Positions 43,075 to 64,000 of a DNA stretch of 64,000 nucleotides are shown here, piece after piece. A program made the position numbers and the translations under genes. The stretch comes from Shigella phage Sfk20. Under the pieces are notes generated by a model, which made no database searches, was not told the DNA's origin, and saw only the letters and a program-made list of their open reading frames with translations. The DNA lies in the sequence record MW341595. One strand, written 5' to 3'. Positions within the stretch are counted from its first letter, which is position 1; the number at the start of each line of letters is the position of its first letter.

Positions 43075-43545
43075 TTAATCATGTTTCCACACCCCATCGG
43101 TATTTGACCAAAGTCGCTGATTATCTGATCCTCGCCACAGCTTTTTAGTCGGAAGATTTTTCTCATACTTCCCATCAATAATAACATCAACATATTTAAG
43201 CATTTCTAGTTGTTTAATATCTTCAAATTTATATCCTGTCCACAACCAAATGCTTTTATTGGGATAAAGATTTTTTACTGTTTGAACCACAGAGTGAACA
43301 ACATCTCGGTTATCAGGATAGAGAGGGTCTCCTCCAGTTATAGTTAATCCTTCTATATAATCGTTATTCAAACATTCAATTAATTGTTCCAGTGTTTCAC
43401 CAGTGAATGGAACGCCATTTCTAGCATTCCATGTTGATTTATTATAACACCCTTCGCATTTATGCAAACAGCCTGTGACGAAAAGAACGACCCTGCATCC
43501 AGGGCCATTCACAAAATCGCATGGATAAAATCTATCATAATTCAT
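43075..43545 (-). CDS. nrdG: anaerobic ribonucleotide reductase activating protein NrdG (radical SAM)
   Basis: 156 aa; radical SAM cysteine cluster CLHKCEGC. Confidence 0.9.
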   Translation of the reverse strand: MNYDRFYPCDFVNGPGCRVVLFVTGCLHKCEGCYNKSTWNARNGVPFTGETLEQLIECLNNDYIEGLTITGGDPLYPDNRDVVHSVVQTVKNLYPNKSIWLWTGYKFEDIKQLEMLKYVDVIIDGKYEKNLPTKKLWRGSDNQRLWSNTDGVWKHD

Positions 43546-45359
43546 TGGTGTTTAACCCTATGCATGATTTCTTTATTTTTGCCGAGATTAAATCCGCGTT
43601 CGTTCGGATTTCCTAAATAACCGCAAGTTCTTCTTATTGTGTTCATCTTTTTAGGATCAGTTTCTCCACAAATAGAACAAACAAACCCGTTTTCAGTAGG
43701 AGTCATTTCATGTGTACTTCCGCATGTAAAACACTTATCTACTGGCATATTAACGCCAAAATAATCTAAATGCTGTGCAGCATAATCCCATACAGCCTCA
43801 AGACCTTTTAGGTTATTTTTCATATCAGGAAGTTCAACATAAGAAATGTGACCACCTGTCGCAATGAAATGATATGGAGCTTCGCGGGAAATCTTTTCAA
43901 ATGGAGTAATATTTTCTTCTACTGAAACATGGAAACTATTAGTGTACCAGCCTTTATCAGTAACATCCTTTACACTTCCATATTTTTCAGTATCAAGTTT
44001 ACAGAAGCGATAGCACAGGTTTTCAGCAGGTGTAGAATACAAACTAAAAGCAAAACCGGTTCTTTCAGTCCACTGCTTAAGACGAGCATTCATTTTAGTT
44101 AAAATTTCCTGTCCAATATCACGACCGACAAGAATATTCAATTCGTGAATACCAATGTATCCCAAAGACACTGAACTTCTACCGTTTTTAAATAACTCAA
44201 TTATGTCGTCATCAGGTTTAAGACGAACCCCGAATGCACCTTCTTGGTAAAGAATAGGAGCAACAGTCGCTTTAACTCCTTTTAAAGAATTAATTCTACA
44301 CATCAAAGCTTCAAAGCATAAATCCATTCGCTCATTGAACAATTCGGCAAATTTTTGTTCATTGAACTGTGTTCCAATATAAGAATCTAACGCAATGCGA
44401 GGAAGATTCAGTGTTACAACACCAAGATTATTACGTCCATCAAGAATTTCATTACCAGTCGAATCTTTCCATACGCTTAAGAAACTACGGCAACCCATTG
44501 GAGAAACAGGAATAGATGAACCAGTGATAGCTTTATTGTTCTTAGCTGAAATAATATCAGGATACATTCTTTTGCTTGCACACTCTAGAGCAAGCTGCTT
44601 AATATCATAGTTCGGATCATCTTTATAAAGATTAACACCTTCTTCAACGAACATAACAAGCTTAGGGAAAATAGGAGTTATCCCATCGCGACCAAGACCT
44701 TTAATACGATTTTTCAGAATTGCTTTCTGAATCATTCGTTCAGTCCAGTCAGTTCCCGTACCAAATGTAATTGTTACAAAAGGCGTTTGTCCGTTTGAAC
44801 TAAAAAGAGTATTTACTTCATATTCATAAGCTTGGAATGCATCGTATACGTCTTTTTCTGTTTTAGATTGAGCATAATTCAACGCATCAGCGATTTGCCA
44901 TTTTTCTGCGTCCTCAATATGTTTTGCATAGGTGCGTTTAACATAAGGAGAAAGTACTTTATCTACATTCGCAAAAGTCGTTCCACCATATTGGTGAGAA
45001 GCAACCTGTGCAGTAATTTGTGCCATAATTGCAGTAGCAACGCCGATTGATTTAGGAGTTTCAATCTGTGCATTACCGAGCTTAAATCCGTTTTCAAGCA
45101 TTCCTTTTAAATCTACTAAACAGCAATTAGTAAATGGAAGAGCAGGGGAATAATCAATATCATGGAAATGGATAATTCCGCTTTCATGCGCTTTCATAAT
45201 AAAAGACGGGACCATATTTTTGGCAATGTGTTTAGACACAATACCAGCCATAAGGTCCCGTTGAGTTGGAAAAACACGAGAATCTTTATTAGCATTCTCG
45301 TTCAAAAGGTCTTTATTAGTTTTATGAATCAATCCTTCAATTTCTTTTTCAATTGTCAT
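43542..45359 (-). CDS. nrdD: anaerobic ribonucleoside-triphosphate reductase NrdD, uninterrupted
   Basis: 605 aa continuous ORF; C-terminal glycyl-radical motif RRTCGYLG and zinc-ribbon cysteines; overlaps nrdG by 4 nt. Confidence 0.95.
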   Translation of the reverse strand: MTIEKEIEGLIHKTNKDLLNENANKDSRVFPTQRDLMAGIVSKHIAKNMVPSFIMKAHESGIIHFHDIDYSPALPFTNCCLVDLKGMLENGFKLGNAQIETPKSIGVATAIMAQITAQVASHQYGGTTFANVDKVLSPYVKRTYAKHIEDAEKWQIADALNYAQSKTEKDVYDAFQAYEYEVNTLFSSNGQTPFVTITFGTGTDWTERMIQKAILKNRIKGLGRDGITPIFPKLVMFVEEGVNLYKDDPNYDIKQLALECASKRMYPDIISAKNNKAITGSSIPVSPMGCRSFLSVWKDSTGNEILDGRNNLGVVTLNLPRIALDSYIGTQFNEQKFAELFNERMDLCFEALMCRINSLKGVKATVAPILYQEGAFGVRLKPDDDIIELFKNGRSSVSLGYIGIHELNILVGRDIGQEILTKMNARLKQWTERTGFAFSLYSTPAENLCYRFCKLDTEKYGSVKDVTDKGWYTNSFHVSVEENITPFEKISREAPYHFIATGGHISYVELPDMKNNLKGLEAVWDYAAQHLDYFGVNMPVDKCFTCGSTHEMTPTENGFVCSICGETDPKKMNTIRRTCGYLGNPNERGFNLGKNKEIMHRVKHQ

Positions 45360-61443: not shown

Positions 61444-61981
61444 TTACTATTTCCAAAAGTTTATTATTTTTAAGGTAATTAGCCTTTTCTAGGACTTCAG
61501 AAGCATATTTAGAACCTGCTTTAACGTTCCATCCCGAATTATAAGAGGATATCGCCTTTCTTATATCGCCCTTATGTATATTTAACCAATAAGAAAGTTC
61601 AATGTACGCCCAGGAAGCTGAATTGGATCGTTTATTCAACATTCTTTTTATTTCAGCATCGGTCATATTATAACCAAGTTCCTTAACTCTCGCTCGCATA
61701 GTCGGCAAATAATTTTGGAACATTCCATAGGCATGATGCTTTGGTTTAGATTTTAAATTAACTCCGGCAGAGCTTTCTTGCCATAAAATAGCAGCCATTA
61801 TATGACCCAATCCGCTCTTGTGGATATTTTTGTGTGTTTTATATTTTCCATCCTTAGAAAATTGTTCCCCGAATTGATATGCGTAGCGCATGTTATCGAG
61901 TTGGACATTACTGAAAGTATGCTCGGAGCTATGTGCCATCATTGAAATGGCCAATAGACCAGCGAGTAGTGCTTTTCTCAT
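61436..61981 (-). CDS. periplasmic lytic transglycosylase-like protein, 181 aa
   Basis: Signal peptide plus ILWQESS...YGMFQ resembling the SLT catalytic E-S / G-MQ motif. Confidence 0.5.
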   Translation of the reverse strand: MRKALLAGLLAISMMAHSSEHTFSNVQLDNMRYAYQFGEQFSKDGKYKTHKNIHKSGLGHIMAAILWQESSAGVNLKSKPKHHAYGMFQNYLPTMRARVKELGYNMTDAEIKRMLNKRSNSASWAYIELSYWLNIHKGDIRKAISSYNSGWNVKAGSKYASEVLEKANYLKNNKLLEIVND

Positions 61982-61988
61982 GCTTACC

Positions 61989-62450
61989 TCATTGAGTTTT
62001 AATTACTGCTTTAGAAGCCTTTCCTGGTAAACGACGACTGTTGATAATTGCCATCCTACATTGAAGCGACGGGTCTTTGAACTTCGCATTAGGTTTACAA
62101 ACTGTAAATCCAAGCCAAAGATTTCCATCTGTGATTTCTAAACGTCCAGGGCGATATTCAACCCCATCAATAAAATCCTCGTCAATGTCAGGACGCGGAG
62201 GCATACTCAGGAATTCATTAACTTCTAAAACATGGTCTTTTATTTTGTGGAATAATTCAAAAACATATGTCTCATCAATCTCTCGTTGAATTGCACGATC
62301 AAGAAGATGCTGAGAATATTTTAGATGAAACGATGAGACCCCTGCTGCTTTTGATGCCTCACGAATCTCATTGTTAATTTGACGAAACTCCGACTCAAAG
62401 TGACGACGAAGCTTATTTCGACGGATAAAAACTTCTGTGTTGATAGTCAT
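61989..62450 (-). CDS. regB: RegB site-specific endoribonuclease
   Basis: 153 aa as T4 RegB; position downstream of the tk block. Confidence 0.8.
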   Translation of the reverse strand: MTINTEVFIRRNKLRRHFESEFRQINNEIREASKAAGVSSFHLKYSQHLLDRAIQREIDETYVFELFHKIKDHVLEVNEFLSMPPRPDIDEDFIDGVEYRPGRLEITDGNLWLGFTVCKPNAKFKDPSLQCRMAIINSRRLPGKASKAVIKTQ

Positions 62451-62477
62451 GTTATTCTCCTCTTAACTGATAGAAAA

Positions 62478-62506
62478 ATTATACCACAGTCAAGAGGAAA
62501 AGTAAA
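62478..62506 (-). promoter_or_regulatory. early (sigma70-type) promoter upstream of regB
   Basis: Reverse complement TTTACT-17 nt-TATAAT. Confidence 0.6.
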
Positions 62507-62509
62507 CAG

Positions 62510-62830
62510 TTATTCTTTAAATCTAATCAATTTATTCATAGACTTTGAAACTTCTGCACGGACCTCATGTAGGTTTTTAAGCTGTTCAAGACGTTGCTCA
62601 TAATAAGCAATTTCATCTTCTTCAAGACAGTCCTGTGAATCTTCTTTAAGATAACGCGCATAGTCCTGGAAAGCTTTACGGACTACTTCCTGGAAGTCAT
62701 CAAGACTTTGAATTTTCTTAGGAGCAACAGATACACGACGAGGGGCAGTATAATACTCATAACCAAACCCTGCGCTTAATTGAGCCATTAATATTTTTCC
62801 TCTGGTTGGAACACAGCACGACAAGCCCAC
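62510..62830 (-). CDS. hypothetical protein (vs.3 position), 106 aa
   Basis: ORF track. Confidence 0.45.
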
Positions 62831-63090
62831 ATACTGGCTTCTTTGAGTTTCGTTTTAGCAATAGTTAACTGATCGAGGCTTTCAGCATAATTCTTCGCGA
62901 ATTCACAGTCTTCACAATTATCCAGTGCTTCCCAGAATTCATCGTATAAAGCGTCAAAGATAAGTCCTAAACGAACTTCAGCATCTTTGATAGCATTCAC
63001 TTTACCGATTTTCTCTTCAGTATGTGGCTTATAACCTTTAATATCTTCAATCATATTTGACTTCCTCACCAGTACATAAATCATATTCAA
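62788..63090 (-). CDS. hypothetical protein (vs.4 position), 100 aa
   Basis: ORF track; synteny only. Confidence 0.45.
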
Positions 63091-63268
63091 CTAAACGAAT
63101 AGGTTCATGAATGCCATATCCTTGAACAGAAATTTCTGTCGTAGGATAAATTCCATCAATATCACCCATGGTCCACGCTTCATTAAATTGCTGTTCGCCT
63201 GAATTACTAAACCACTCGGCGAAAGCATTTAACACATCTTTAGAACCTTCAATAATTATCTTTGCCAT
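63047..63268 (-). CDS. hypothetical protein, 73 aa
   Basis: ORF track. Confidence 0.45.
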   Translation of the reverse strand: MAKIIIEGSKDVLNAFAEWFSNSGEQQFNEAWTMGDIDGIYPTTEISVQGYGIHEPIRLVEYDLCTGEEVKYD

Positions 63269-63630
63269 TACAAGCTCTCAGTAAAGGTACGAGCGATAAC
63301 GTCGCGCTGCTGTTCCGGAGTCAGAGAGTTAAAGCGAACTGCATAACCGGATACACGGATGGTCAGCTGCGGATATTTTTCCGGATGCTTAACTGCATCT
63401 TCCAGAGTTTCACGACGCAGAACGTTAACGTTCAGGTGCTGACCACCTTCAATTTTAACTGTAGGCTGTGGTTCAATTTCAATTTCACGGGTGTGCAAAC
63501 CGTAGAAAATTTCTGGGTCTACAAAAGAGTCCTCTTTAAAGGTTTTAGAAACAATAATTCGTGCTTGAATACCATCTTCAAAATAAATAGTACCTTTATG
63601 TGTGCCTTCAAGAATTTGATATGCTTTCAT
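63268..63630 (-). CDS. autonomous glycyl-radical cofactor (GrcA/YfiD-like), 120 aa
   Basis: C-terminal 59 aa [60 protein letters not shown] match remembered E. coli GrcA incl. RVSGY motif; 3' part visibly GC-rich. Confidence 0.85.
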
Positions 63631-63636
63631 ATAACC

Positions 63637-63966
63637 TCAATTAGAAAATAAATTTATCCAAGACTGTTCTTTAATTAAAAATGGCTCAGAATCATATGCC
63701 ATTAAACTTTGGGTGATTAGTCCTTTAAAAGGTCCATCAATAAATTCCATGGTAAAATATGGAATTTTATTCATTAATCTTGCATTAGGAGCAGTACACA
63801 AAACTCTGCATCCTTTGAATACACCTTTTTGTAATTTGTATTGCTTAGGATAAAATTCGCTCAAGACGTTGTTATTTGCCAAAATTTCAAAATGATTCAC
63901 CAATTTATTTTTAATAGTTTTTGGCGAAAAATAAAGATATTCGAAAAGCTGTGTGTCTGTCATCAT
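63637..63966 (-). CDS. hypothetical protein, 109 aa
   Basis: ORF track. Confidence 0.45.
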   Translation of the reverse strand: MMTDTQLFEYLYFSPKTIKNKLVNHFEILANNNVLSEFYPKQYKLQKGVFKGCRVLCTAPNARLMNKIPYFTMEFIDGPFKGLITQSLMAYDSEPFLIKEQSWINLFSN

Positions 63967-64000
63967 TGCATTCCGATTACGAAAAACTGCGGACGAGTAA

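Follow-up and report, generated by a model that had tools for sequence, protein, structure and literature searches.

A 64,000-nucleotide (nt) stretch of the genome of Shigella phage Sfk20 (sequence record MW341595; hereafter the window), a T4-like Tequatrovirus, carries the gene vs.6 at 63268..63630 on its minus strand, which encodes a 120-residue homologue of the autonomous glycyl-radical cofactor GrcA (YfiD) of Escherichia coli. Comparison of this gene with its host and phage relatives led to the reading, to which a probability of about 0.85 is assigned, that vs.6 is an old phage homologue of grcA in which the part encoding the structured domain was overwritten by E. coli grcA through recombination. 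The tract concerned is of host origin and specific to E. coli, has defined junctions and a phylogeny in conflict with that of the rest of the gene, and has an independently acquired counterpart in phages of Klebsiella.

The host-identical tract of vs.6

Residues 61-120 of the vs.6 product, including the glycyl-radical motif RVSGY, were all identical to residues 68-127 of E. coli GrcA. An earlier reading of the window from its letters alone (the original prediction) had proposed such a C-terminal match over 59 residues; the match and its motif stood, and the identical stretch proved to be 60 residues long. As nucleotide sequence, the part of the gene from position 179 to 363 (window 63268-63452) aligned with grcA at 97.8-98.9% identity in 5426 of 5426 complete E. 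coli genomes, bearing out the prediction that nucleotide identity to grcA would be elevated, and the 178 nt at the 5' end of the gene gave no blastn match in these genomes. Within the aligned 185 nt the only mismatches were at 63277 and 63273, both in the final three codons (GAG AGC TTG in vs.6 and GAA AGC CTG in grcA). The exact core of the tract (63278..63452, minus strand), equivalent to E. coli grcA positions 200-374 and encoding the structured glycyl-radical domain, was identical at 175/175 nt with zero synonymous differences, and is followed by a short phage-type 3' end (63268..63277, minus strand; GAG AGC TTG TAA) that holds the two mismatches. When used as a query, a 174-nt portion of the tract matched the top E. 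coli genomes among the matches listed at 100%, and 2823 of the 5426 genomes at 99% or more. Nucleotide identity of the tract to grcA is thus far above chance. The host genes pflB and tdcE were ruled out as donors because their identity to the tract was only 80% and 75%, respectively. Five or six of the grcA/pflB-like matches in the E. coli collection lay on plasmids and not on chromosomes.

As a control, the entire window was compared with the same genomes by megablast. Positions 1-39000 gave no E. coli match at all. For positions 39001-64000 the listed best place in every E. coli genome was the vs.6 tract, and the number of places matched (10838) was the same as that obtained with the 174-nt tract query alone. 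Outside the tract, the phage genes nrdD and nrdG included, no megablast-level match was found in these genomes. An assembly or laboratory artefact was also ruled out, as vs.6 was present at full length and 90-100% nucleotide identity in more than 600 phage records, and every Tequatrovirus and Mosigvirus allele checked had an E. coli-like tract.

The tract was equally distinct in its composition. The content of guanine plus cytosine (GC) was 0.47-0.52 over 63260-63470 compared with 0.26-0.34 over 63500-63900, with a step from about 0.30 to about 0.50 at the vs.6 junction. With a GC of 0.497, against a window mean of 0.347 (standard deviation 0.04, z=3.8), the 175-nt tract ranks first in GC among stretches of its length in the 64-kb window, and none beyond 63264-63474 equalled it. 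The 5' half of the gene had a GC of 0.34 and a GC at third codon positions (GC3) of 0.20, the corresponding values for the tract being 0.49-0.50 and 0.44. The tract makes use of codons such as CTG, CGT, CCG and CAG, which are usual in E. coli but atypical of the phage. The expectation that approximately 180 bp at the 3' end would be GC-rich with E. coli-like codons, and would stand out from the flanking phage sequence in a GC and codon-usage profile, was therefore confirmed.

The donor was specified by comparison with 85 host grcA genes, among which E. coli was the best host for the tract. Synonymous divergence (dS) of the tract was 0 to an O157-type allele of E. coli, 0.07 to Escherichia sp., 0.35 to Citrobacter, 0.55 to Klebsiella variicola and 1.03 to Salmonella. 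Between E. coli and Salmonella, grcA itself was about as diverged in the tract (dS 1.03) as in its 5' half (dS 0.94). As a protein, the C-terminal domain was highly conserved in all phage and host versions. The baseline for such a domain in phages was provided by the 3' segments of RB49, T5-like phages, Nanhuvirus, Slopekvirus and many IMG/VR homologues, which were 70-84% identical to the best host grcA; for RB49 and the T5-like phages, which are E. coli phages with a similar domain, identity to E. coli grcA was 73-76%. As the host orthologues, whose peptides are the same or almost so here, are free to diverge at synonymous sites, constraint or codon convergence would be unable to yield the vs.6 pattern, and on these comparisons both can be taken as excluded as the cause of the tract identity.

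Conflicting histories of the two halves and the Klebsiella phages

The N-terminal half of the vs.6 product (codons 1-60; 63453..63630, minus strand) had been described in the original prediction as different and AT-rich, like phage sequence to which a host segment had been fused. The AT-rich composition was confirmed, but this half is not unrelated to GrcA. With BLASTP searches using the N-terminal pieces alone (residues 1-67 in the case of GrcA), the 60 N-terminal residues aligned with GrcA residues 28-67 at 33% identity (13/40, E=1e-5), a similarity that is weak but significant and identifies this half as a diverged counterpart of the GrcA N-terminal region. In a multiple alignment, the elements AR.IV.K..ED and RE..(I/V)E..P.V were common to phages and hosts. 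Full-length homologues of vs.6 were present in Tequatro-, Mosig-, Jiaoda-, Karam-, Slopek-, Krisch- and Nanhuvirus, T5-like phages and jumbo phages, and those of RB49, T5-like phages, Nanhuvirus and other phages had no host-like nucleotide tract. The N-terminal homology and the existence of full-length homologues lacking the tract therefore indicate that vs.6 is a phage homologue of grcA of old standing, in which gene conversion replaced the 3' half, and, as the final 10 nt are again phage-type, the tract is an internal patch and not a terminal fusion. Of the chimera originally proposed, a host-derived 3' segment and a sharp junction were upheld; fusion to unrelated phage sequence gave way to replacement within a phage homologue.

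The versions found in RB49 (Krischvirus), T5-like phages and Nanhuvirus share the protein family, the layout and the conserved C-terminal domain of vs.6 and differ from it in having 3' halves of phage-like GC that are 73-80% identical to any host grcA. They represent the unconverted state. GrcA-like genes were also widespread in unrelated phages of Enterobacteria, namely T5-like Demerecviridae (sequences L089 and L136-L162) and jumbo phages of 345-357 kb (L119-L122); the N-terminal halves of these T5-like and jumbo phage genes differ, and the host-identical tract is absent from them.

Trees were built separately for the two parts of the gene, with support taken as split frequencies counted directly in the bootstrap trees. 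In the protein tree of the 5' half, all phages formed one clade apart from all hosts (split support 1.0), within which Tequatrovirus, Mosigvirus and Jiaodavirus formed a subclade (support 0.93). In the nucleotide tree of the tract, the Tequatrovirus and Mosigvirus alleles lay within Escherichia (split support 1.0) and the allele of the Klebsiella Jiaodavirus grouped with the K. variicola-type grcA (support 0.88). The same host-specific pattern was visible in the protein, as ETLEDAVKH was found in E. coli GrcA and E. coli phages and ETLLDAVEH in Klebsiella GrcA and Klebsiella phages.

The Jiaodavirus vs.6 gene (L004:1518-1880, from Klebsiella phage vB_KpnM_5N; also L121) has a host-derived tract of its own, of approximately 143 nt. 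This tract, a case the original prediction had missed, is a separate replacement by Klebsiella grcA; within the final 186 nt of the gene, positions 4-146 were 96.5-97.2% identical to K. variicola. The last 40 nt were 75-80% identical to K. variicola and resembled the phage-type end seen in Slopekvirus. When the related phages were compared, as had been proposed in order to locate the recombination junction, the 5' junction proved to coincide, in Tequatrovirus/Mosigvirus and Jiaodavirus alike, with the first residue of EGGQHLN, the point from which phage and host are similar; the 3' end points of the two lineages differ. A common 5' junction, differing 3' ends and conflicting trees are as predicted for the homologous replacement of a patch inside an existing homologue. 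The conflicting trees and the differing 3' ends therefore indicate at least two independent host-to-phage events, and two independent conversions across genera, one from E. coli and one from Klebsiella, are well supported by these comparisons. Host genes in the Klebsiella comparison were K. variicola and Klebsiella-type grcA. An exact 50-mer of the Jiaodavirus tract found no match in metagenome contigs, and therefore no closer Klebsiella donor was identified.

Three further sequences encountered in these comparisons differ in kind. The match at 601-959 in L121 (IMGVR_UViG_2974754850_000001) is 359 nt long with its 5' half out of frame and containing stop codons; either the copy is frameshifted or pseudogenised, or its sequence is in error. 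A 19-kb contig (L123, IMGVR_UViG_2706794630_000006), considered as a third host-like phage case, was excluded because, although classed as viral, it carries a full-length bacterial grcA of Yersinia-like type, whose identity to that of Y. artesiana is 86% (5' half) and 91% (3' half), and not a phage vs.6. An Enterobacteriaceae-type grcA encoding a protein with 91% amino acid identity to E. coli GrcA was found in a record labelled 'Vagococcus sp. WN89Y' (L035, NZ_JBQPOM010000029.1), the Firmicute label of which probably reflects a contaminated or mislabelled assembly.

Origin of the tract and competing explanations

The composition of the tract fits E. coli, the divergence of the E. coli tract is as expected for vertical descent, and the phage alleles are nested in Escherichia; the direction of transfer was therefore from host to phage. 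Donation of the 3' half by a phage to E. coli grcA has a precedent of sorts in the intragenic phage-to-host transfer proposed for psbA (PMC1484495), yet it was considered to have almost no chance of being correct, since the GC and codon usage that suit E. coli make the tract an outlier in the phage, since the E. coli tract diverges from Citrobacter, Salmonella and Klebsiella just as its own 5' half does, and since phage alleles nest within Escherichia and not the reverse. Equally improbable is the absence of any transfer, with the identity arising from protein constraint together with selection for E. coli-optimal codons, or from a function at the RNA level. The extreme conservation of the C-terminal domain as a protein in phages and hosts and the strongly biased codon use of grcA would favour this explanation, but it is contradicted by the near-equal dS of tract and 5' half between E. 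coli and Salmonella, by the low identity to E. coli grcA of RB49 and T5-like phages with a similar domain, by the low GC3 in the 5' half of the same mRNA, by the sharing of the non-preferred codons AAG, CAT, TAT, TTT and GTA, and by the Klebsiella-specific synonymous variants of the Klebsiella phages. It could also be imagined that a new gene was made when a fragment of host grcA was joined illegitimately to an unrelated phage ORF (open reading frame), as the sharp step in composition, and a nucleotide similarity that ends abruptly at gene position 178/179, might indicate. This is very improbable given that the 5' half is itself homologous to the N-terminal region of GrcA (alignments begin at residue ~20), that many phage genera have full-length homologues without a host-identical tract, that the junction falls exactly at the end of phage-host homology, as expected for homologous and not illegitimate exchange, and that the phage-type last 10 nt make the tract internal.

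Less easily set aside, although still unlikely, is a single old conversion from E. coli that subsequently spread among Tequatrovirus and Mosigvirus in co-infections, host exchange having ceased. All Tequatrovirus and Mosigvirus alleles examined had their 5' junction at the same place and nearly identical tracts, and it is established that T-even phages recombine readily with each other. Moreover, the few phage-private changes, as read off the alignment, were mostly from G/C to A/T, which fits a decay to the phage's own composition after a single event. Against a single transfer, phage tract alleles were only 0-4 substitutions from E. coli alleles, approximately the allelic range of E. coli itself (dS between two E. 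coli grcA alleles was 0.048), with zero changes in the allele of the window versus 1-4 in the others. Three sites, 213 G/A, 240 T/C and 303 C/A, varied with the same bases in the four E. coli and ten phage alleles, and one phage allele (L098) was 99.4% identical to 485 E. coli genomes with 213A and 303A. Tequatrovirus and Mosigvirus differed at 20/178 sites in the 5' half (dS 0.39-0.44), whereas only 1-4 differences in ~172 sites separated their tracts (dS 0.07-0.10). The mix of host and phage bases in the last 10 nt also differed between phages, with GAA AGT TTG in T4, GAG AGC TTG in the window and GAG AGT CTA in Mosigvirus, and the Klebsiella tract shows that the process can recur. For exchange within the E. 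coli phages, the three shared polymorphisms and variable 3' ends among approximately 10 alleles are suggestive of recurrence but not decisive.

Several points weigh against the replacement of part of an old phage gene by host sequence, or against its repetition. We infer recombination with host DNA from the sequence pattern, and its repetition among E. coli phages and a selective advantage, if any, are inferences too. The alleles compared base by base numbered approximately 10 from E. coli phages and 4 from E. coli. All the shared polymorphisms are at third positions (two transitions, one transversion) and could have recurred by chance, at about 1% by a rough, informal estimate; the low divergence between Tequatrovirus and Mosigvirus tracts could likewise result from one host-to-phage event followed by phage-to-phage spread. 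The closest Klebsiella donor was 97% and not 100% identical, with K. pneumoniae sensu stricto outside the comparison. The score of the vs.6 product against the TIGR04365 (spare_glycyl) profile, 153.4 bits (E=3.4e-45; protein residues 20-120 against profile positions 25-126), is below the curated equivalog cutoff of 170, presumably because the N-terminal half has diverged. As for physiology, formate, a product of pyruvate formate-lyase (PFL), was reportedly identified by Mulliez in 1995 as the hydrogen donor of the class III ribonucleotide reductase of E. coli; that the vs.6 product, by keeping PFL active, might make formate available as reductant for the phage-encoded NrdD is plausible but speculative.

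The likely route by which host grcA replaced part of vs.6 in Tequatrovirus and Mosigvirus is homologous recombination in the infected cell, in which phage DNA received a gene-conversion patch from host DNA. The homologous recombination of T-even phages is very active, and fragments of host DNA are at its disposal during infection. For the first event, the conserved domain would have supplied homology of approximately 75-85%. The 5' end of the patch lies where phage-host similarity stops, on the border of the diverged N-terminal region with the conserved domain, and its 3' end a few codons 5' of the stop. Once converted, the gene would present 175 bp of perfect homology and further exchange would be easier, which would explain why phage alleles stay within the allelic diversity of E. 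coli and share its polymorphisms. The sister genus Jiaodavirus, on Klebsiella, has an independent, shorter patch from Klebsiella grcA. It is tentatively proposed, with somewhat more doubt than belief, that vs.6 is a lasting patch of homology by which strictly virulent T-even phages copy, time and again, whichever grcA allele their current host carries, through homologous recombination with its chromosome ('host tracking'). Such tracking, about which the same reserve applies, would keep the spare-part domain identical to that of the host and would have arisen independently in E. coli and Klebsiella phages. It may be under selection, if a perfect fit to the PflB/PflA partners in the host is of importance.

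Gene context, function and significance

The vs.6 reading frame was recovered from the ORF list of the window as predicted, on the minus strand with an ATG start. A putative ribosome-binding site, GAGG (63635..63638, minus strand), was read from the sequence 4 nt 5' of the ATG and shares bases with the stop codon of the upstream ORF at the vs.7 position. The first base of the downstream ORF (63047..63268) is also the final base of the vs.6 stop codon, giving a one-base overlap. As in the T4 gene order, vs.6 is flanked by denV/vs.8/vs.7 on one side and vs.5/vs.4/vs.3/regB on the other. The closest phages were ECp13 (100% over the gene) and KNP1 (99.9% over a 1-kb region). The T4 counterpart at the same position is vs.6 (NC_000866 63557-63919, NP_049730; RefSeq product 'autonomous glycyl radical cofactor GrcA'), which likewise encodes 120 residues with the same E. 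coli-like tract and differs from the window gene by 2 residues and 8 nt; in the tract, T4 has R73H and one synonymous change, where that of the window is an exact copy of an E. coli allele. The ORF at the vs.7 position (63637-63966, minus strand) had no NCBIfam match. It encodes 109 residues here and in T4 and 55 as annotated in IME339, so that its annotation is inconsistent between Tequatrovirus records. Scanning of 61800-64000 for promoters and terminators revealed sites no commoner than in shuffled sequence. Further from vs.6, the anaerobic class III glycyl-radical ribonucleotide reductase gene nrdD (43542..45359, minus strand; NF006732, 908.8 bits, cutoff 657) and its activase gene nrdG (43075..43545, minus strand; TIGR02491, 199.2 bits, cutoff 126) were both verified as NCBIfam equivalogs above cutoff, in agreement with their earlier assignment; they are context and lie outside the mosaic.

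The vs.6 product is a small, stand-alone protein, in which a match of the Gly_radical type to PFL structures spans residues ~58-120. It matched the GrcA chain 6OWR in the PDB (E=8e-42), aligned from residue ~20-22 to the end. The C-terminus is of the PFL type and not of the NrdD type, matching PFL residues 697-759 (E=5e-26), and the RVSGY motif, identical in E. coli GrcA, occupies residues 92-96 (63343..63357, minus strand), with G95 as the radical glycine. The vs.6 product has the same two-part layout as GrcA and is 7 residues shorter, with a phage-specific N-terminal part; unlike vs.6, which sits in a phage gene cluster, E. coli grcA sits by ung.

We take the vs.6 product and the Y06I protein of Wagner et al. 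(2001) to be the same protein. Like YfiD/GrcA, T4 Y06I receives its radical from the PFL activase and restores PFL cleaved by oxygen (Wagner 2001, as cited in PMC8683613), in line with the published spare-part role that the original prediction gave for this T4 homologue of YfiD. On the biochemistry of the T4 protein, from which the present allele differs by two residues, the product is a predicted spare glycyl-radical module for host PflB. In YfiD, residues 61-127 are structured and mimic PFL 693-759, residues 1-60 are disordered, and the N-terminal region promotes the binding of cleaved PFL and efficient activation (PMC8683613). The tract corresponds to the structured domain of YfiD and the phage-specific half to its disordered region.

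The gene and its biochemical role were already known, and nothing new is added on function. No description of the nucleotide-level mosaic or of the host-specific replacement of vs.6 was found in the searchable literature, a scope outside which the T4 genome review lies; vs.6 was reported by Nolan (2006) only as a Gly_radical Pfam match. The mosaic is nevertheless a phenomenon of a known kind. It resembles the cyanophage genes psbA and psbD (Sullivan 2006, PMC1484495), with their patchy GC, host-clustering segments and intragenic homologous recombination. Of the marks used for genes of the psbA type, a compositional break, conflicting phylogenies and a donor dS of ~0 with orthologues diverging normally were found in vs.6. 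Host-phage intragenic recombination in psbA and psbD of cyanophages is also said to have been described by Zeidner in 2005. In contrast to the cyanophages, the phage carrying vs.6 is strictly virulent, of the T4 type, and degrades host DNA; the tract, unlike those of psbA and psbD, is short (~145-175 nt) with a 5' junction that is both sharp and reproducible, matches a host allele existing today at 100%, and belongs to a replacement that recurs host-specifically in sister genera (E. coli versus Klebsiella).

The case is therefore an unusually clean and base-exact one of a host chromosomal segment replacing part of a homologous gene in a lytic, host-DNA-degrading phage, with defined junctions and a clear direction, and was repeated independently in a sister genus that infects a different host. 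For annotators and host-prediction tools it is a caution that a perfect host match of 175 nt is not necessarily a prophage or contamination. If exchange is recurrent, vs.6/grcA would be a simple system in which to measure the rate at which virulent phages sample host DNA through homologous recombination, and selection for an exact match of the spare part to the host enzymes would become testable with it. If host tracking is true, the gene would provide a natural and measurable reporter of gene conversion from host to lytic phage in the best-studied phage.

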